42,631 bases of DNA, from assembly GCA_964405205.1 (NCBI GenBank), contig CAYOMU010000001.1:1-42631 (forward strand). The letters run 5' to 3'. Shown piece by piece: positions 2,917-37,153 of the stretch. The notes below the pieces were generated by a model. It was not told where the DNA came from, did not search any database, and worked only from the letters and a program-made list of their open reading frames with translations. The position numbers and the translations under genes were made by a program. The stretch is from Candidatus Woesearchaeota archaeon. GTDB lineage: Archaea > Nanobdellota > Nanobdellia > Parvarchaeales > Parvarchaeaceae. Numbering within the stretch: the first letter of the stretch is position 1; each line of letters opens with the position of its first letter.

Positions 2917-3539
2917 AAAAAGAAGATCTTAAGAAATTGCTATTTGAGTCTATTGTTATTTCAGGAATATTGGTAGTACTTGCTTTCTTCCTTGGATTAT
3001 ACGTTTCTTCAGTGTTTTATTCAAAAACTGAAGAGCTTATCTTTACTTTTCAAGAAGATATTGCACAGCTTCAATTTACTTTTTCTTTAAACAAATCTCT
3101 AACAAATTTAACTTGTAATAGCATTAGAGATTCTATATTATTGCTAGGATCAAGCAACAAACAACTAAGTGTCTTATTCTCTAGCAATACTACTTCTAAC
3201 AATGAGCTTATTAATCAGCTTATGTTTATTAGAGTAGAAGAATGGGAGCTAGCTCAAAAATACAACGAAGAATGTAAAGGAAATTTGTCAGCTGTGTTAT
3301 TTTTGTATACAAAGAATTCCTTAAGTTCAAATGAAGAGGGATTAGAACTAAATACTTTATACAACACATATCCTTCAAGAATTATTATAGCTGCTATTAA
3401 TGTAAACAGTACCGCCCCTTTTGTGAAGGAATTAATTCAAAGTTTTAATATATCTAAGTTCCCGGCGGCAATAATAAATAATAAAGTAATAACTGGACTT
3501 CAAAACTATTCTTACTTAAGTAAGTTAATTTTAAGCTAA
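2910..3539 (+). CDS. Single-pass membrane protein, unknown function, coupled to the GT2 gene
   Basis: It overlaps the GT2 stop by 7 nt. One TM helix (IVISGILVVLAFFLGLYV) is followed by an Asn/Ser-rich ectodomain. Confidence 0.5.
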   Translation: MVKKEDLKKLLFESIVISGILVVLAFFLGLYVSSVFYSKTEELIFTFQEDIAQLQFTFSLNKSLTNLTCNSIRDSILLLGSSNKQLSVLFSSNTTSNNELINQLMFIRVEEWELAQKYNEECKGNLSAVLFLYTKNSLSSNEEGLELNTLYNTYPSRIIIAAINVNSTAPFVKELIQSFNISKFPAAIINNKVITGLQNYSYLSKLILS

Positions 3540-5708
3540 TCCTTTTCTCTCTCTTATTTCTTTAACTATTTGTTGATATAATTGTGGAGGTAATTTCTTA
3601 AGCTCTTCTCCTACTAACGAGAACGATCCTCTTCCTTCGCTTGTACTTCTTATTTCATCTGCAAGATTAAATGTTTCCGCTACAGGAATTTTAGCAATTA
3701 TTACAGCATTTCCTAATTCTTCAGTTACACTTTCAACTTCTCCTCTTTTAGACTGAATTAAAGTAGATATTGCACTTATATATGAAGGAGGCACATCTAC
3801 TCTTATTATTTGAATTGGTTCAAGCAACACAGGATCTGCGCTTAAAAATGCTTGAATTATTGCGTCTTTAACAGCAGGAATTACTTGGGCTGGGCCTCGG
3901 TGAATTGCATCTTCGTGTAATATTGCATCATCTAATACAACTTTAACTCCTTCTACTTCTTCTCTGCATTGTGGCCCTCCTGCCATGACTTCTTCAAAAG
4001 CTTGAGCACACATATCTATAACTTCTCCTATATGAAGGATTCCTCTAGTATTGTCAACAAACATGTTATTGTTGTATATATCTACAATTCTTTTAATTTC
4101 ATCATTGCTCATTCCTGCTTCCATTAGTTTTTTCTTTATTGGTTCTGAAAATTCTCTAACTTTGCCTCTAGGTATGTCTTCTTCTCGTAATAATTTAAGT
4201 ACCTCTTCCGATAAGGGCTCAACATGTAAATAGAATTTATTGTGTTTGTTAGGAGATTTTCCTTCAAAGTCTTGGCTCTTTTTACTTATACTTTCTTTAT
4301 AAACTACAATAGGCGGAGAAGTAATCACTGGAATGCCATATTTTCTTTTTAACGCATCCTCAATGATCTCTAGATGAAGAGGACCAAGCCCAGCAACTAA
4401 TATTTGTCCTGTTTGCTGATTAATTTTAACTTTTAATGTTATATCTGAGATAGAAAGATCCCTTAAAGCCTCAGTTAATTTAGGCAAATCTTTTGGATTT
4501 TGTGGTTCAATAGCTTTAACCATTACAGGTTCCAATACGTGTTTTATTGGTTCGAAAGGCTCAACATTTGGAATTGAAGAAATAGTTTCTCCAGCAATTA
4601 CGTTCTTTAATCCAGCAATTCCAATTATATTTCCTGCGATTCCTTCGTCTATAGCAAATTTATGAGGGCCTTTCCAAATATACAGAAGTTGAGCCTTATT
4701 AATTTGTCCTTGATTAACAAGATAAACATCCTGTCCTTTCTTTATTTTTCCAGAGAATACTCTGCAAACTGCAATTTCCCCTGCTTGAGGATCTACTTCT
4801 ATACTAGTAACAGAAATCATTAAAGGACCATTTGGATCGCAAGTAATTAAAGCCTTGCCTATATCTGAGTTCAGATCGCCCTTCCAGATTATAGGAATTC
4901 TGTATTTTTGAGCCTCATAAGGGGGTGGGATGTGTTGTATTACCATTTCTAACAACGTTTTATAAACAGGGCTCTTCTTCGATAGTTCTCTTATTTTTTC
5001 TTGGTCTAAATTTCTATAAGCATCATAAACCTGTTGAAAACCAACACCAGTTTCTTTTATGCTTTTGATGGAAATCGCCCAATTGTCTCTTGATGCACCG
5101 AAAGCAACACTATTATTTTGCACGTTTACTTGCCATTTTTCTTTGAATTCATCTCTTGCGAAAGTTTTAATCAATACATTAATTTGTCCAATAATTTTTG
5201 CTAGCCAATCTTGCATTGCTTTTGGATCTAATTTTAACTCAGTTACTAATCTATCTATTTTGTTTATGTAAAGAATAGGCCTCACATTATTTTGCAGGGC
5301 TTGCTTTAATGTCATCTCTGTTTGTGGTCTTGCACCTTCTACTGCGTCTACAACTACAATAGCTCCATCTATTGCTCTTATGGCTCTTGTTACATGACCG
5401 CCAAAATCTACATGTCCTGGAGTATCAATAAGATTAATTAAGTACTCATCGCCTTCACTACGCGTATAAACCATGTTTACATTAGATGCTTTTACTGTCA
5501 TTTGTCTCTCTTGTTCAATTTCTTCGGAATCTAAAACTAAGACTTTTCCTGCTTTTTCCTCAGAAAGCATGCCACATCCAGCTAAAAGACCATCTGCAGT
5601 AGTAGTTTTTCCATGATCCACATGCGCTATTATGCCTATATTTCTAATTCTTTCCGGTATTTTCATTAAGCGCGTTACCTTTTCGGTCAAACTTTCTTTT
5701 TCGGGCAT
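3531..5708 (-). CDS. fusA: Translation elongation factor 2 (aEF-2)
   Basis: It has AHVDHGKTT and DTPGHVDF G-domain motifs and is 725 aa. The domain IV motif HEDAIHRGPAQ contains the diphthamide-target His (His603, codon 3900-3902). Confidence 0.97.
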   Translation of the reverse strand: MPEKESLTEKVTRLMKIPERIRNIGIIAHVDHGKTTTADGLLAGCGMLSEEKAGKVLVLDSEEIEQERQMTVKASNVNMVYTRSEGDEYLINLIDTPGHVDFGGHVTRAIRAIDGAIVVVDAVEGARPQTEMTLKQALQNNVRPILYINKIDRLVTELKLDPKAMQDWLAKIIGQINVLIKTFARDEFKEKWQVNVQNNSVAFGASRDNWAISIKSIKETGVGFQQVYDAYRNLDQEKIRELSKKSPVYKTLLEMVIQHIPPPYEAQKYRIPIIWKGDLNSDIGKALITCDPNGPLMISVTSIEVDPQAGEIAVCRVFSGKIKKGQDVYLVNQGQINKAQLLYIWKGPHKFAIDEGIAGNIIGIAGLKNVIAGETISSIPNVEPFEPIKHVLEPVMVKAIEPQNPKDLPKLTEALRDLSISDITLKVKINQQTGQILVAGLGPLHLEIIEDALKRKYGIPVITSPPIVVYKESISKKSQDFEGKSPNKHNKFYLHVEPLSEEVLKLLREEDIPRGKVREFSEPIKKKLMEAGMSNDEIKRIVDIYNNNMFVDNTRGILHIGEVIDMCAQAFEEVMAGGPQCREEVEGVKVVLDDAILHEDAIHRGPAQVIPAVKDAIIQAFLSADPVLLEPIQIIRVDVPPSYISAISTLIQSKRGEVESVTEELGNAVIIAKIPVAETFNLADEIRSTSEGRGSFSLVGEELKKLPPQLYQQIVKEIRERKGLA

Positions 5709-7864: not shown

Positions 7865-8162
7865 AACAAGTTGCCACCAGGTTATTGTATTCTATTGTAT
7901 TATTAAATACTAATAAGTTGTTTCCTAATTGTGAGCTAATTTGATTATAAAGATTTTCAATTTCTAGCGCAGAAGGGCTTTTATTCAGTTCTTTATATAG
8001 TAAGCAAAAACTGTTTTTAGCAATCAGAAAACTTTCTAAATTAATGTTATATTTGCTTTGTGTTATTGACTGAGAGTATATAAAATTAGCATAGCTATAT
8101 ATTCCAATTACTGCAAGAATTAATATAGGTAAAATCGCAATCAATATTGCCTGGGATTTCAT
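7857..8162 (-). CDS. Small membrane protein, possibly type IV pilin-like (class III signal peptide)
   Basis: The start is taken at the internal Met (MKSQAILIAILPILILAVIG), because the 8204 start would overlap the divergent KH gene start. A short charged N-terminus, then Q, then about 20 hydrophobic residues resembles prepilin signals. Confidence 0.4.
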   Translation of the reverse strand: MKSQAILIAILPILILAVIGIYSYANFIYSQSITQSKYNINLESFLIAKNSFCLLYKELNKSPSALEIENLYNQISSQLGNNLLVFNNTIEYNNLVATCYG

Positions 8163-8202
8163 AAAGAATAAATATTTTACTAAATAATTATTTAATCGAA
8201 GC

Positions 8203-8691
8203 ATGGAAACTTATGTTTTGATGAATAAACCTAGATATAATAGTTTTAAAAATGCATCAAAGATACGTGAGGAGTTTGAAATGCGCGGCATAAAAATAGA
8301 AGACGAAGGTGACGGCTCTATAAGAATTATTGGAGAAGATGCGTATGTTGCAACTCAAGCAGCCGAGGTTTTAAGCGCTTTTAATCGTGGATTTAGTGAG
8401 GAAGATTCTCTTCTGCTTTTTAATGAAAATTATGAATTTTTATCAATCGACATAAGAGATTACGCTAATTCTAAGAATAGACAGATTCAGTTAAAAGGTA
8501 GAGTTATTGGAAAAGAAGGCAAAATTAAGGAGCAAATAGAAGCCAGAACAAATACAAAAATTAGTGTTTTTGGAAAGACTGTAAGCATAATTGGTGAATA
8601 TGAAAATGTAGATAGAGCAAGTAGAATAATAGGTGCAATACTAGAAGGAAAGCAGTTTTCAACAGCATTCAAATTACTAACTTATGGTTGA
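8203..8691 (+). CDS. KH-domain RNA-binding protein (Dim2/Pno1-like)
   Basis: GRVIGKEGKIKEQIEARTN is a KH GxxG loop, and a second KH-like half lies N-terminal. Confidence 0.75.
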   Translation: METYVLMNKPRYNSFKNASKIREEFEMRGIKIEDEGDGSIRIIGEDAYVATQAAEVLSAFNRGFSEEDSLLLFNENYEFLSIDIRDYANSKNRQIQLKGRVIGKEGKIKEQIEARTNTKISVFGKTVSIIGEYENVDRASRIIGAILEGKQFSTAFKLLTYG

Positions 8692-10519
8692 AGATAACAT
8701 TACAGATATTGCCGAGGAGCTTGCAAAAGGACAGAAGAGCATAAGTATTACTGAGTTCTTTGAAAAAAATAGGCACTTGCTTGGATTTGAAAACAAGCAA
8801 AAAGCTTTACTAACTTGCGTAAAAGAGGCCCTAGATAATGCATTAGATGCGTGTGAAGAACAAGCATACGCGCAACTAAAAAGAGGAATGAAGGTTGATT
8901 TACCAGAGATTAAAGTAGAGGTTAAACAAGTTAGTGAAGACTATGAGGTTTTAGACAATGATACTGTAATTGGGGAACTTTCTGTCTATGATAAAGAAGT
9001 TGTATTTAAGTTTAAAGGAAAAACCCTTTCAGCAAAGAAAAGTACAAATATAAAATTCACTCATGAGGATAACGAAATAAACGTATCTTTGGCAGAGGAC
9101 AAAATTGTTGTTACTTTAAATAATAAACAAGTGCAATTAAAGAAGAAAAGTCCTAGATTTAGGATTTCAGTTGCAGACAATGGCCCAGGAATTGTTGAAA
9201 CTCAAATTCCGTATATATTTGGTAAAATGCTTTATGGTAGTAAATTTCACAGGATGAAACAATCAAGAGGTCAGCAAGGTATTGGTATTCATGCAGCAGT
9301 TCTTTATGGACAACTAACAACAGGAAAACCAGTAGTGGTTACTTCAAAAACTTCTTCAAAAGAAAAAGCAATTAAGATGGCAATAATGATTGATATCGTT
9401 AAAAACGAGCCGATTGTGATTAGCAAGGAAGAAACTGAATATGAATATCCTCATGGTACGAAAGTTGAACTTGAGGTTGAAGGAAATTATGTTCTTGGAG
9501 AGCACAGCGTGGATGAATACATAAGAAGAACAGCTATAGTAAATCCTCACGCAACAATTATATATTTCAGCCCTGAAGGTAAAGAATACAAGTATCAGAG
9601 AGTATCCACAGTTCTTCCTCCTGAGCCAATAGAAATTAAACCTCATCCTCAAGGACTAGAGTTAGGTACATTTATGAGAATATTAAAAGATGCTCAAGAA
9701 AGAACGATAGTTTCTGCCTTAGAAAATGAGTTTTCTAGAGTGAGTAGAAGTATAGCAGAAGAAGTGGTAAATAGCGTAGGAATAGATCCAAAAACAAAAC
9801 CTGGTGAGCTTACTAGAGAGCAATATGATTCTCTTTTAAGGGCATTGCAATCTGTGGATTTGCTTAGGCCGCCAACAGATTGCCTTTCTCCAATTGGTGC
9901 AGAGTATATAGAAAGAAGTTTAAAATCTGAATACAACCCAGAGTTTGTATTCGCAGTAACAAGAAAGCCTGAAGTATATAGAGGTATTCCATTTCTTATA
10001 GAAGCGGCTGTTGCTTATGGTGGTAACATAAAATCTGAAAAAGCGTCTTTGTTAAGATTTGCTAACAAAATACCTTTACTACTAGATGCTTCATCATGCG
10101 CTATAACAGCTACTTTTCTTTCCATTGATTTTAGTAGATATGGCATAAAAACTGATGGAAAAACCCCGCTTGGGCCTTTTGTTTTTCTAGTTCATATTGC
10201 AAGCGTTTGGGTTCCTTATACTAGTGAAGGAAAGACGGCGATTGCAAAATATCCAGTGATAATGGAGGAAATTAAGTTAGCATTACAAGAAGTTCTTAGA
10301 GAGGTTTCTAAGTATTTGAGTAAGCAGACAAGAAAAAGGCTTTTAGAAGAAAAACTCAGTTTATTTGATAAATATTCATTAGAGCTTGCAGATTCATTAT
10401 CAAAATTAACAGGAAAAGATCGAGAATATGTTGAGAAAAAGATTAAAGATTTATTAAATACAAGAAGAGAAGAAATTAAATCTAATATATTAAATGAAAA
10501 TGGAACACAAAGCAATTAG
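8684..10519 (+). CDS. top6B: DNA topoisomerase VI subunit B
   Basis: Bergerat-fold motifs LDNALDA, DNGPGI and SRGQQGIGIHAA are present. Length is 611 aa, and top6A follows immediately. Confidence 0.93.
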   Translation: MVEDNITDIAEELAKGQKSISITEFFEKNRHLLGFENKQKALLTCVKEALDNALDACEEQAYAQLKRGMKVDLPEIKVEVKQVSEDYEVLDNDTVIGELSVYDKEVVFKFKGKTLSAKKSTNIKFTHEDNEINVSLAEDKIVVTLNNKQVQLKKKSPRFRISVADNGPGIVETQIPYIFGKMLYGSKFHRMKQSRGQQGIGIHAAVLYGQLTTGKPVVVTSKTSSKEKAIKMAIMIDIVKNEPIVISKEETEYEYPHGTKVELEVEGNYVLGEHSVDEYIRRTAIVNPHATIIYFSPEGKEYKYQRVSTVLPPEPIEIKPHPQGLELGTFMRILKDAQERTIVSALENEFSRVSRSIAEEVVNSVGIDPKTKPGELTREQYDSLLRALQSVDLLRPPTDCLSPIGAEYIERSLKSEYNPEFVFAVTRKPEVYRGIPFLIEAAVAYGGNIKSEKASLLRFANKIPLLLDASSCAITATFLSIDFSRYGIKTDGKTPLGPFVFLVHIASVWVPYTSEGKTAIAKYPVIMEEIKLALQEVLREVSKYLSKQTRKRLLEEKLSLFDKYSLELADSLSKLTGKDREYVEKKIKDLLNTRREEIKSNILNENGTQSN

Positions 10520-32682: not shown

Positions 32683-33297
32683 TTAAGTAAAATGCATTAA
32701 AGTAGGTTGAGATGTATACCATTTTAATCTTACATACTTTCTTAACTCCTTTATTTTACCTTCTTTAATTATTTTTTTGATAAATTCTTTTGTTTTTGGA
32801 TCAGAAGGATAACCAGAACCGAAATCTCCTATTTCTTTTCTTATTTTTTCTATTTCTTCTTCTCTAGTTTTTTTAGCAATAATTGATGCTCCTCCAACTT
32901 GAATATAATCTCTATCTGCAAAATTTCTTGCAATAACTTTCTTTTTTGTCATCTCAATTAATTTATCTTCTATTCTTTTTTCGTTTGAAGAAGGAGCATC
33001 TACTATTGCTTCGTCGCAATTAGCTTCTTTTATAAATTTTGCAAAAACATTTAATTCTAGTTCATTGATATTATTTTTATCTAATTCCTCGGGTTCAATT
33101 TTTTCAATAAAATATTCAAAGTTGTTTTGCAACCAATTTCCAATTTCAAATATTTTCTTAATTGAAAGCAATTTAGAATCCTTCACACCTTTTTCTTCTA
33201 GTAATTTTAAATCCTCATCTTTTACTATAAGTCCTGCAACCACTAAGGGTCCAATTACTGGGCCTCTACCAGCTTCATCAATACCTATGTATTTCAT
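32683..33297 (-). CDS. rnhB: Ribonuclease HII
   Basis: IGIDEAGRGPVIGPLVVAG (the DEAGRG catalytic motif) and a later DSK motif are present. The start is taken at Met preceding KYIGIDE. Confidence 0.9.
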   Translation of the reverse strand: MKYIGIDEAGRGPVIGPLVVAGLIVKDEDLKLLEEKGVKDSKLLSIKKIFEIGNWLQNNFEYFIEKIEPEELDKNNINELELNVFAKFIKEANCDEAIVDAPSSNEKRIEDKLIEMTKKKVIARNFADRDYIQVGGASIIAKKTREEEIEKIRKEIGDFGSGYPSDPKTKEFIKKIIKEGKIKELRKYVRLKWYTSQPTLMHFT

Positions 33298-33556
33298 CTG
33301 CTCTGAACATTGCATGTCCAAAATGCACAAGTAAATCAATTCCAAATTTGCTTACACCTATCGGAATATCACAAGCACCATAAGCTGAGCCGCCCCAAAT
33401 GTATACTTCTGCCTCTGTGTTTTCTTTAATGTACTTTGCAATTTCTAATGCTTTAGGCTTCAATCCAAAAGGAAGCTGAATTAAAACTCTTTTGTAGTTC
33501 TTTTCTTTAATTTTATTTACTATTTTTTCTAATTCTAAATCAAAGTCCTCTTTCAT
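33278..33556 (-). pseudogene. dph2: N-terminal fragment (about 85 of about 340 residues) of diphthamide synthase subunit Dph2
   Basis: KRVLIQLPFGLKPKALEIAKYIKENTEAEVYIWGGSAYGACDIPIGVSKFGIDLLVHFGHAMF matches the Dph1/Dph2 N-terminal domain, including the first Fe-S Cys (YGAC). The ORF then stops inside the rnhB start region. Confidence 0.75.
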
Positions 33557-33604
33557 ATTTCTATTAATAGTTTCAATAGTTGTTACTATTTAAAAACCGA
33601 AAGA

Positions 33605-33649: not shown

Positions 33650-33874
33650 ATGGATGTTTTAAAGCACAGATTGAATCCAGCCTGCCGTATTCTTACATCT
33701 GAAGAGATAGAGCAATTACTAGCGAAATTTAAGTGTAAAAAAGAAGATTTACCAAAAATAAAGTCTTCTGATCCTTTAGCTCAAGCCTTAAAAGCAAAAA
33801 TTGGAGATGTAATTGAATTTGATCGTGTAAGTCATACTGCAGGAACTGCGAAGTATTATCGTGTCGTAGTATGA
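33650..33874 (+). CDS. rpoH: DNA-directed RNA polymerase subunit H (Rpo5)
   Basis: LPKIKSSDPLAQALKAKIGDVIEFDRVSHTAGTAKYYRVVV is present; length is 74 aa. It forms an ATGA overlap with rpoB''. Confidence 0.9.
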   Translation: MDVLKHRLNPACRILTSEEIEQLLAKFKCKKEDLPKIKSSDPLAQALKAKIGDVIEFDRVSHTAGTAKYYRVVV

Positions 33875-35382
33875 ATAAGGAAGAACAATATACGTTGATC
33901 AAAAGCTTTTTCAAAGAGTTTGGATTGGCACCTGTGCACATAAGATCTTTTGAAAGATTCGTAGAAAATGTTATGCCAGTTATAGCTAAAAATGTAGAGA
34001 TGAAACCTTCTGTTGCACCTCCTGGATATAAGAAAGTGGAAATAAAGATAGAAAACATAAGAATAGGTAAGCCAGATGTTAAGGAGAGCGATGGTAATGT
34101 AAGAACTATTTATCCTATGGAGGCAAGAATTAGAGATCTAACTTATGCAGCTCCTATTATAGTAGATGTAGCATACATTGCTGATGGAGAAAAAGTTCAA
34201 GAAGAAGAAGCAACCATTGGAAGACTACCGGTGGTGGTGAAATCAAAGTATTGTAATCTTCATGGGTTAAGCAGAAAAGAATTGATTGAAAAAGCAAGAG
34301 AGGATCCTGATGATCCTGGTGGGTATTTTATAATTAATGGAACAGAAAGAATAATATTAACTACAGAGGATCTTGCGCCGAATAAGTTAATAGTAACTAA
34401 ATCTTCTCAGGAAGGAATTGAATACGTTGGAAGAATATACGCTGATGCTGGGCCCATTAAGTTGCCACATTCAATTATCATGGCAAAGAATGGTCAATTC
34501 CTTATAAGTTTTGGCGTGTTCAAAAAGTTACATTTGATTTCATTGATTAAAGCTTTGGGTGTAAAAGACGATGATGACATTAGAGCATTTATAGACCCAG
34601 AGCCTAAAGCTGCTTGGTTGCTAGAGGCAAATTTAATGGAAGCCAGCAAGGAACAAGATAAAATTAACAAATATTTAGAAGAATCCTCTGGTATTTCTAC
34701 TAAGAAAGCTGTGGTTGCAAACATTGATAATTTCCTTCTTCCATTTATTGGTCAAACACCATCTTCCAGACTTGCAAAGGCAATGTATCTCATGTATGCG
34801 ATCAAGACAATGCTATGGCATTGGGCCAATAACACTGAGGATGATAGAGATAGCTACTTCAATAAGCGTGTTCACCCAGAGGATTATAATCTTGAAATTA
34901 TTTTTGCTACATCTATGAAAGCCTTGGCCAAAGAAGCTGTAAATGCATTTGAAGTTATAGTCAATAAGCAAAAAAGATTTCCAAAAGCAGATTACATTTT
35001 TGAAAGAGATGTGTTGATAAGAAGATTACTTTCTTCTCTTTCTACAGGATTGTGGCCAGGTAATAGAACTGGAGTTACTCAGCAATTATCAAGATCTAGC
35101 TTTATTGATTCTATCTCATATCTTAGAAGAGTAGAATCTTTGCTTACTTCTAACAGAGAAAATGAAATGGCGAGAATGTTGCATGGAACACATTTTGGGA
35201 GATTGTGTGCAATAGAAACTCCAGAAGGTCCTAATATTGGTTTGACTAAGAACCTTGCTTTGTTTGGATATATTCCATCTGAAATCGATGAAAGTGACAG
35301 AAAGAAAGTGCAACAAATTATAGAAGACATGGGATTGAAAGAATATGAGCTTAGTTCTATTAGACGGAAAGCCAATAGGTGA
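33871..35382 (+). CDS. rpoB2: DNA-directed RNA polymerase subunit B'' (N-terminal part of split Rpo2)
   Basis: GGYFIINGTERI and THFGRLCAIETPEGPNIGL motifs are present; length is 503 aa. Confidence 0.97.
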   Translation: MNKEEQYTLIKSFFKEFGLAPVHIRSFERFVENVMPVIAKNVEMKPSVAPPGYKKVEIKIENIRIGKPDVKESDGNVRTIYPMEARIRDLTYAAPIIVDVAYIADGEKVQEEEATIGRLPVVVKSKYCNLHGLSRKELIEKAREDPDDPGGYFIINGTERIILTTEDLAPNKLIVTKSSQEGIEYVGRIYADAGPIKLPHSIIMAKNGQFLISFGVFKKLHLISLIKALGVKDDDDIRAFIDPEPKAAWLLEANLMEASKEQDKINKYLEESSGISTKKAVVANIDNFLLPFIGQTPSSRLAKAMYLMYAIKTMLWHWANNTEDDRDSYFNKRVHPEDYNLEIIFATSMKALAKEAVNAFEVIVNKQKRFPKADYIFERDVLIRRLLSSLSTGLWPGNRTGVTQQLSRSSFIDSISYLRRVESLLTSNRENEMARMLHGTHFGRLCAIETPEGPNIGLTKNLALFGYIPSEIDESDRKKVQQIIEDMGLKEYELSSIRRKANR

Positions 35383-37153
35383 AGTAGAAAATGGCGCGTC
35401 AGTAGCGCAAAAACTTAGAGAGGCAAGAAGAAAAGGTGAGATTTCACCATTTATCGGCATTGCTTACGACAAAGATAAGGACGCTTTGATAGTAAACACC
35501 GATAACAATAGAATAATGAGACCTCTAATTGTAGTTAATAATGGGAAACCTTTAGTCGTTAAAGAAGATATAATTGCACTAGAAAAAGGAGAAATAACTT
35601 TTATGGATTTAGTAAAGAAAGGAAAAATCGAATTCTTAGATGCGGATGAAGAAAACGAAGCATATGTTGCAATGAATGAGGAAGATTTAACTCCACAACA
35701 TACTCATCTTGAATTATCTGCGCTTTCTGTCCTTGGATTTCAAGCAGCTATGCTGCCATTTGTAAATCACACATCACATTACAGAAACATAGTAGCTGTC
35801 AAAAGCTTGAAACAGGGAATAGGTACTTATACTGCAAATTATTTGCTTAGAGCAGACAACGATAGATATGTTGCAGTTGATCAGCAAGTTCCTATAGTTA
35901 AAACTATGTTATATGATGTAGTAGACTATGCTAAGCATCCATCAGGTCAAAATGTAGTTGTCGCAGTAGCATCTTATTTAGGTTATAACATGGATGATGC
36001 TATTATTGTTAATAAGTCAGCAATTGAAAGAGGATTATTTAAAGGATTTTTCTTCAGGCCATATAAAACTGAAGAAATAAAATACACTGGAGGAAGATCT
36101 GATGAAATAGGAATTCCAGATAAAGATGTAAGTGGTTATAGATCTGAAGAAGCTTACAGAAACTTAGACTCTGATGGAATTGCGAAGCCAGGAAGTTACA
36201 TTAAAGAAGGCGATGTAATTATTGGTAAGGTTTCCCCTCCGAGGTTTGCTTCTTCTATCGATAAGTTTAGGTTAGGTATTATAAAGCGAATAGAGTCCTC
36301 TGTTGCAAGCAGAAAGGGAGAGGAAGGCGTAGTAGACACAGCTATACTTACTACTAATCAAGAAGGTAACAAATACATAATTGTTAAAGTAAGAGAAGAT
36401 AGAACAGTCGAATTAGGAGATAAGTTTATGACTAGAGAAGGACAGAAGGGAGTAGTAGGTATGATACTAGATGAGGCAGATATGCCATTTACTCAATCAG
36501 GAATTATTCCAGATATTATTTTCTCTCCTTATAGTATTCCTTCTCGTTATACATTTTCTCTTCTTCTTGAATTAATTGCTGGAAAATCTGGTGCAATTAA
36601 TGCAAAATACTACGATGGAACTCCATTTCTTGGAGTGACAGAGGAAGAGATCAGAAAGGAATTAAAGGCGGCAGGGTTTAGAGATGACGGAGTAGAAGCA
36701 ATGTATAATGGCATAACCGGCAATAAGATGAATGCTAGAATTTTTGTTGGAGATTTATTTTATCTTAGACTTAAGCATACAACAGCTACAAAAATGCAAT
36801 GGAGATCAAGAGGACCTGTGCAGATATTAACTAGACAGCCAACTGAAGGAAAGGCAAGAGGAGGAGGATTAAGACTTGGAGAAATGGAAAAGGATGTTTT
36901 CGTAGCTTACGGTGCTGCAGCTGTATTAAAGGATAAATTCTCCTCAGATACTATGAAAGTGCCTGTATGTGAAAAGTGCGGATTGGTTGCAATATACAAC
37001 TTTAAGACTAAAACTGCTAGATGTCCTATTCATGGCGATAATGCACCTATTAAATTAGTAGAAGTACCAGCAGCATTTAATATTTTATTAAATGAAATGA
37101 AAACACTTGGAGTTTATCCAAGATTGATATTAGGTAGCAAATATGAAGATTGA
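35345..37153 (+). CDS. rpoB1: DNA-directed RNA polymerase subunit B' (C-terminal part of split Rpo2)
   Basis: Present are NMDDAIIVNKSAIERG, GQKGVVG, GGLRLGEMEKD and a C-terminal Zn motif CEKCG...CPIHG. Length is 602 aa. Confidence 0.97.
   Translation: MSLVLLDGKPIGEVENGASVAQKLREARRKGEISPFIGIAYDKDKDALIVNTDNNRIMRPLIVVNNGKPLVVKEDIIALEKGEITFMDLVKKGKIEFLDADEENEAYVAMNEEDLTPQHTHLELSALSVLGFQAAMLPFVNHTSHYRNIVAVKSLKQGIGTYTANYLLRADNDRYVAVDQQVPIVKTMLYDVVDYAKHPSGQNVVVAVASYLGYNMDDAIIVNKSAIERGLFKGFFFRPYKTEEIKYTGGRSDEIGIPDKDVSGYRSEEAYRNLDSDGIAKPGSYIKEGDVIIGKVSPPRFASSIDKFRLGIIKRIESSVASRKGEEGVVDTAILTTNQEGNKYIIVKVREDRTVELGDKFMTREGQKGVVGMILDEADMPFTQSGIIPDIIFSPYSIPSRYTFSLLLELIAGKSGAINAKYYDGTPFLGVTEEEIRKELKAAGFRDDGVEAMYNGITGNKMNARIFVGDLFYLRLKHTTATKMQWRSRGPVQILTRQPTEGKARGGGLRLGEMEKDVFVAYGAAAVLKDKFSSDTMKVPVCEKCGLVAIYNFKTKTARCPIHGDNAPIKLVEVPAAFNILLNEMKTLGVYPRLILGSKYED

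Follow-up and report, generated by a model that had tools for sequence, protein, structure and literature searches.

Archaeal Dph2 is a homodimer, and each protomer consists of three similar α/β domains. One cysteine per domain holds a [4Fe-4S] cluster, which cleaves SAM to yield a 3-amino-3-carboxypropyl radical. The split form of this protein is already described in DPANN archaea, in which separate genes encode the N-terminal and C-terminal domains of Dph1/2 (Narrowe et al. 2018, PMC6143161); Parv-, Pace-, Woese- and Altiarchaeota have been listed as carrying it (Dombrowski et al. 2019, PMC6349945). The nanoarchaeote Nst1 also has a split DPH2 (Nst 222 and Nst 440), N. equitans has no DPH2 gene, and further split genes of Nanoarchaeota include reverse gyrase, AlaRS and others in N. 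equitans (Podar et al. 2013, PMC3655853).

We analyzed a stretch of 42,631 nucleotides (hereafter, the window) located on contig C1 of a genome assembly of 413 kb in 42 contigs, estimated to be 82% complete. A sequence-only reading had found there a 92-codon ORF resembling the N terminus of Dph1/Dph2 and had considered it a truncated gene remnant, decaying as its lineage loses diphthamide, one part of a split gene with its remainder elsewhere, or an artefact of assembly or rearrangement. Our analysis favors the split gene. We conclude, with a probability of roughly 0.93, that this ORF, dph2N, is the first of two genes that jointly encode Dph2 (2-(3-amino-3-carboxypropyl)histidine synthase), that the two halves most likely associate noncovalently, and that the split is old and fixed in this DPANN class (GTDB Nanoarchaeota, Parvarchaeota/Acidifodinimicrobium-like lineage), reflecting neither decay nor artefact. 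The split itself is real and almost certainly functional.

[quoted passage not shown] We find no essential difference, the closest named relatives here being MAGs of Parvarchaeota and Ca. Acidifodinimicrobium; the split dph2 of the window is a further instance of a published phenomenon in an already named lineage, and as such is already known. Neither paper gives the break point, the pairing of dph2N with rnhB or frequencies, which are added here, including separated pieces in 135 of 151 sampled genomes. The split DPH2 of Nst1 is alike in that a reduced nanoarchaeal genome encodes the protein by two genes far apart, but it belongs to another lineage. The single-chain archaeal homodimers (P. 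horikoshii, 3LZC/3LZD; Ca. Methanoperedens, 6BXM; M. smithii, 6Q2D) share the family, the three Cys ligands and the domain-1 fold, but each protomer is one polypeptide of ~330 aa, whereas the chain here is interrupted between residues ~85 and 93 (6bxm numbering). The eukaryotic Dph1–Dph2 heterodimer likewise belongs to this family, has two polypeptides and transfers ACP to the histidine of EF-2 by radical-SAM-like chemistry; its subunits are full-length paralogues, whereas the two polypeptides here are complementary fragments of one protomer. The other split genes of Nanoarchaeota are alike in that fission has dispersed their halves in reduced DPANN genomes, and the window also contains a split rpoB. 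They encode different proteins, however, and dph2N and dph2C leave no room for intein halves.

Two complementary genes for Dph2

The ORF dph2N (Table 1) matches PF01866 (Diphthamide_syn) at positions 2–58 of 302 (E = 1.9e-13; 51 bits, cut-off 33.2) and TIGR00322 at positions 2–82 of 320 (E = 5.6e-25). Judged by these profiles, the family match is far above chance, and the initial assignment of the ORF to the N-terminal part of Dph1/Dph2 stands, as does the observation that it terminates inside the start of rnhB. The predicted protein aligns to residues 4–85 of 6bxm (Ca. Methanoperedens Dph2, CmnDph2; E = 3e-18), spanning the GACD cysteine and FGHA motifs, and ends 11 residues beyond the GH motif. 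We take its Cys62 to correspond to Cys59 of P. horikoshii Dph2, in which the cluster-binding cysteines, one per domain, are Cys59, Cys163 and Cys287. Against the archaeal Dph2 equivalog TIGR03682, dph2N covers profile positions 1–65 with 66.1 bits, relative to a full-length cut-off of 202.8.

Table 1. Features of the split dph2 locus and of related genes. Positions refer to the window unless another contig is named.
Feature	Position	Strand	Description
EF-2	3531..5708	-	Dph2 substrate; HEDAIHRGPAQ loop intact; target His603, codon CAC, at 3900-3902
rnhB (RNase HII)	32683..33297	-	204 aa, intact; directly downstream of dph2N; ATG at 33297
dph2N 3′/rnhB 5′ overlap	33278..33297	-	20 nt, in different frames; dph2N TGA at 33278-33280
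dph2N	33278..33556	-	92 aa, ATG to TGA; encodes domain 1, the N-terminal half of the split Dph2
Gly80-His81, GH motif	33314..33319	-	Last conserved element ahead of the break; invariant in the N-half alignment
Cys62 codon TGT, YGACD motif	33371..33373	-	First of the three predicted [4Fe-4S] ligands; aligned to 6bxm GACD
TTTTAAATA, candidate archaeal TATA box	33587..33595	-	31-39 nt upstream of the dph2N ATG; proposed from reading the sequence only
rpoH	33650..33874	+	RNA polymerase subunit H/Rpb5 C-terminal domain; divergent neighbor of dph2N; PF01191 E = 8.8e-25
dph2C	Contig C10, about 8050-8733 (L001:1504-2187)		227 aa, own ATG; domains 2 and 3, Cys74 and Cys200

A six-frame PF01866 search of the genome returned two real matches, the window ORF (2–58) and a second region at C10:8047–8703 (62–285; E = 3.7e-37). 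The latter is dph2C, the C-terminal remainder that a split gene would have elsewhere, and it lies well inside contig C10, which is 13.9 kb long. Its product matches TIGR03682 at positions 73–292 (E = 2e-44; 152.1 bits, cut-off again 202.8) and PF01866 at positions 64–285 (126.1 bits), and aligns to residues 93–306 of 6bxm, the GC and TAC cysteine motifs included. Finding dph2C revises one part of the sequence-only reading: the second and third cluster cysteines and the rest of the protein are indeed absent from the ORF, but they are encoded on contig C10. A complete dph2 elsewhere, named in that reading as a refutation, was not found in the assembly by the six-frame search. A third PF01866 match (contig C11, E = 0.0095) belongs to an FtsY/SRP54 GTPase and is spurious.

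The two products are complementary and do not overlap on the solved structure (6bxm residues 4–85 and 93–306), and their lengths, 92 and 227 aa, sum to 319 aa. Together they cover the TIGR03682 profile with a summed score of ~218 bits; each singly falls below the cut-off, as expected because the gene is split. In the alignments to solved Dph2, Cys62 of the N-half falls on the GACD motif, and Cys74 and Cys200 of the C-half fall on GC and TAC. By alignment, dph2N and dph2C together are one full-length archaeal Dph2 with all three predicted cluster ligands.

Structure models are in keeping with the alignments. In an AF2 model of dph2N (pLDDT 82), a long helix at the N terminus accompanies three parallel strands that are predicted with confidence (residues 23–27, 50–54 and 75–78), and the tail at residues 85–92 has low confidence. 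Foldseek comparison of this model with domain 1 of 6bxm, 6q2d and 3lzc gave a probability of 1.00, TMq of 0.69–0.74 and rmsd of 1.4–2.9 Å, and dph2N is predicted to fold as Dph2 domain 1. The fold of dph2C was assigned from a confident model (pLDDT 90) together with its sequence alignment to 6bxm residues 93–306; its first 15 residues are coil when it is modeled alone. Since the dph2N model has only three confident strands and residues 1–15 of dph2C are coil in isolation, the first strand of dph2C may complete domain 1, and the conserved M-x-x-h-[FY]-V-E-A-R start of the C-half plausibly docks on, or completes, the domain-1 sheet.

From the conservation and complementarity of the two pieces, we propose that dph2N (domain 1, Cys62) and dph2C (domains 2 and 3, Cys74 and Cys200) would associate noncovalently and rebuild a three-domain protomer in which one Cys per domain holds the cluster. 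The rebuilt Dph2 would cleave SAM and transfer the 3-amino-3-carboxypropyl group to His603 of EF-2, and dph2N would be expressed ahead of the overlapping rnhB as a compact gene pair. In N. equitans, a split intein links the two halves of PolB. Here, protein or RNA trans-splicing is unlikely because neither piece has length to spare for an intein half and both dph2N and dph2C begin and end with a start and a stop of their own. Neither process would find spare sequence, as dph2N ends 11 residues past GH and dph2C starts 2–3 residues before the next conserved strand.

On contig C10, dph2C is flanked by a DUF763 gene on the opposite strand (L001 430–1491, E = 3.9e-118) and by a DinB/Pol IV gene (L001 2159–3259), the latter overlapping the 3′ end of dph2C by ~29 nt. 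Neither DUF763 nor DinB was found beside dph2C in 18 relatives with a separate dph2C.

Distribution and conservation of the split

Among 40 relatives, 35 have separate N-terminal (profile ~1–59) and C-terminal (profile ~62–290) matches with a common break at ~59/62. A whole, single-ORF dph2 occurs in two (G040 and G034), adjacent halves in one (G025) and one piece only in two. Both separate pieces are present in 23 of 24 same-family genomes, and in the five relatives in which one contig carries both, the halves are 26–48 kb apart (G014, G008, G016, G015 and G009). We also surveyed a phylum-wide sample of 151 genomes with completeness of at least 85%. In this sample dph2 is in two or more separate pieces in 123 genomes and whole in 12; one piece only was found in another 12, adjacent halves parted by stop codons in three, and none in one. 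Over 100 genomes share this break point.

Stand-alone N-halves of 78–121 aa form at least 127 clusters in the protein database, and where these are named they are diphthamide synthesis proteins of Woese-, Pace- and Nanoarchaeota MAGs. The best named matches to dph2N, at 55–61% identity, come from MAGs of Ca. Acidifodinimicrobium mancum, Ca. Parvarchaeota and Nanoarchaeota from mine-drainage-type samples, followed by many Woesearchaeota and Nanoarchaeia MAGs. An alignment of 47 stand-alone N-halves has D6, G31, K33, G60, C62, D63, P65, G80 and H81 invariant, and all 47 terminate 3–23 residues past the GH motif. The separate C-halves all start with M-x-x-h-[FY]-V-E-A-R, and C74 and C200 are invariant among them. 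Relative to its counterpart in the same-genus genome G001, dph2N has pN of 0.155 and pS of 0.85 (saturated), a pN/pS of ~0.18; we give pN and pS rather than a corrected dN/dS because synonymous sites are saturated (pS 0.85–0.93). On this substitution pattern, dph2N is under strong purifying selection.

Other forms of the gene occur in the wider sample. In G025, a relative of the same class (contig C7; L007 108–1208), the two halves are adjacent and in-frame: the N-half ends in ...GHNKFNKRKEGW and a single TAA, and after 3 nt the C-half begins at an ATG (MKVSFVDATW) with GGAGG upstream. This arrangement looks like fission in place by a stop and a restart. Genomes G163 and G178 each have one match across the whole PF01866 profile with internal stops. 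Five families (f4, f17, f18, f23 and f37) mix genomes with whole and split dph2; for example, the gene is whole in G040 and G139 and split in G120, and whole in G142 and split in G041. Since whole and split forms occur within the same families, alongside adjacent ones, the distribution suggests more than one event of fission, re-fusion or transfer.

Some database records of N-halves carry unexpected labels or contexts. Many records titled "uncultured Methanosarcinales archaeon," from binchicken co-assemblies (e.g., L056, L057, L061 and L062), encode N-halves 50–60% identical to dph2N and interleave with Woesearchaeota records, and one N-half record is titled Aminicenantes bacterium (L120). These titles are probably taxonomic mislabels or reflect contaminating contigs. 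An 84-aa stand-alone N-half (P0058) is encoded on a 1.84-Mb contig, which is large for a DPANN genome.

Gene neighborhood of dph2N

The gene directly downstream of dph2N is an uninterrupted rnhB (PF01351 RNase_HII, E = 4.4e-42; TIGR00729, E = 4.2e-51, 173.9 bits, cut-off 123.3). In 13 of 20 relatives examined, dph2N is likewise directly upstream of rnhB, abutting or overlapping it. Each of the nine same-family loci retrieved has the pairing, as do four other families (G036, G039, G031 and G026), and a gap of ~0.7–1.1 kb separates the two genes in G033 and G028. Over the last eight codons of dph2N (33278–33301), which overlap the start of rnhB, there are zero nucleotide differences between the window and the congener G001, whereas synonymous sites in the rest of the gene are saturated, a pattern that fits a dual-coding constraint.

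At two of these loci, G036 (contig C1, L034 about 2660–2790) and G039 (contig C10, L035 about 2440–2560), rnhB is broken directly after its GIDEAG(R) motif by a short insert (L034, 28 nt; L035, about 22 nt). At both loci the dph2N frame is stop-free through the first rnhB exon and terminates inside the insert. The 20-nt overlap, the abutment in relatives and this run-on of the frame allow for a functional coupling of dph2N and rnhB. It might act at the level of translation or, in some lineages, involve splicing to a Dph2N–RNase HII fusion product; that the pairing is functional rather than a by-product of genome compaction is, in our estimate, unlikely.

On its other side dph2N faces rpoH, which is followed by rpoB (33871–37153) as two consecutive genes of 503 and 602 aa that overlap by 38 nt (35345–35382). 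Split rpoB is known in various archaea. The rpoH and split rpoB genes adjoin dph2N in the same-genus G001 and are 1.5–1.7 kb off in five relatives of genus g2 (G002, G004, G012, G014 and G016); neither was found near dph2N at three loci of genus g3. A scan for sigma-70 promoters and terminators returned 5 sites against 6.5 expected, the sigma-70 model being uninformative for an archaeon. The G+C content of the window is 31.5%, and a tiny, AT-rich genome is as expected for DPANN.

Diphthamide pathway and alternative explanations

The window's EF-2 retains the HEDAIHRGPAQ loop with the modifiable His603, as first read. Of the two other pathway genes sought in the genome, dph6 is present (C2:13620–14273; PF01902, E = 4.7e-63), and dph5 was found in the assembly neither by HMM nor by tblastn with the Dph5 proteins of three relatives. 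The gene was found in 22 of 25 genomes searched, among them all 15 same-family relatives and the congener G001. The ORFs of the congener's 3.6-kb dph5 neighborhood (L128, contig C35 of G001) have no match in the assembly either. Since this whole neighborhood is absent, we read the lack of dph5 as an assembly gap and not as a specific loss, best explained by the ~18% of the genome missing from the assembly. The Dph5 of G001 is itself short (~219 aa) and matches only positions 1–167 of the 258-position TIGR00522.

These observations bear on the possibility that dph2N is a pseudogene fragment, left after the loss of most of dph2 in a lineage that is giving up diphthamide. The small extent of the ORF, with only ~60 family positions in the window, and the missing dph5 speak for such decay. 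Yet the genome has the complementary half as an intact 227-aa gene at another locus, the catalytic-site residues are invariant in the 47 N-halves, the low pN/pS (with pS saturated) points to constraint, dph6 is intact and the EF-2 histidine is kept, while the dph5 result is weakened by its presence in most genomes searched, congener included, and by the loss of the entire neighborhood from an 82%-complete assembly. We consider decay very unlikely, contrary to what was first suspected. Still less credible is a misjoin at ~33280–33300 that cut dph2 and set it beside rnhB. A fragmented, 42-contig MAG invites that suspicion, but local misassembly is excluded because the same break recurs in independent assemblies: the uniform break point and the identical dph2N–rnhB junction, the latter at every same-family locus fetched and in four other families, are found across dozens of independently assembled genomes, and dph2C has an ATG start of its own at the corresponding point, well inside its contig.

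The conserved neighborhood raises a different alternative, namely that the stand-alone N-half has a role of its own, for example one linked to the co-transcribed RNase HII, and is not simply a subunit of Dph2. The adjacency of dph2N to rnhB is kept across families, whereas the context of dph2C is not, and the dph2N frame of G036 and G039 extends into the first exon of rnhB. However, invariance falls precisely on GACD and GH, the cluster and active-site motifs of Dph2, nearly all genomes carry N- and C-halves together, and in the window dph2N and rnhB overlap out of frame; conserved adjacency in very compact genomes is, moreover, weak evidence of shared function. We judge a separate role to be about as improbable as decay. 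The preferred reading remains that dph2N and dph2C are the two subunit genes of one Dph2.

The main relevance of the split dph2 is to annotation and quality control. Short Dph2 N-halves are not to be called pseudogenes, nor should they be read as signs of a lineage losing diphthamide, and dph2 is unsuitable as a single-copy marker for the completeness of DPANN genomes, a warning against Dph1/2 as a marker gene already given by Narrowe et al. 2018 (PMC6143161). What we add is small: the uniform break just past GH, how often the split occurs within the class, the conserved dph2N–rnhB pairing, the adjacent stop-plus-restart forms and the whole forms within split families. As an incremental point, the uniform break directly past GH makes Dph2 a natural two-piece system in which to study the assembly of its three-domain [4Fe-4S] site. 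This archaeon, extremely reduced as it is, seems to have kept its diphthamide pathway.
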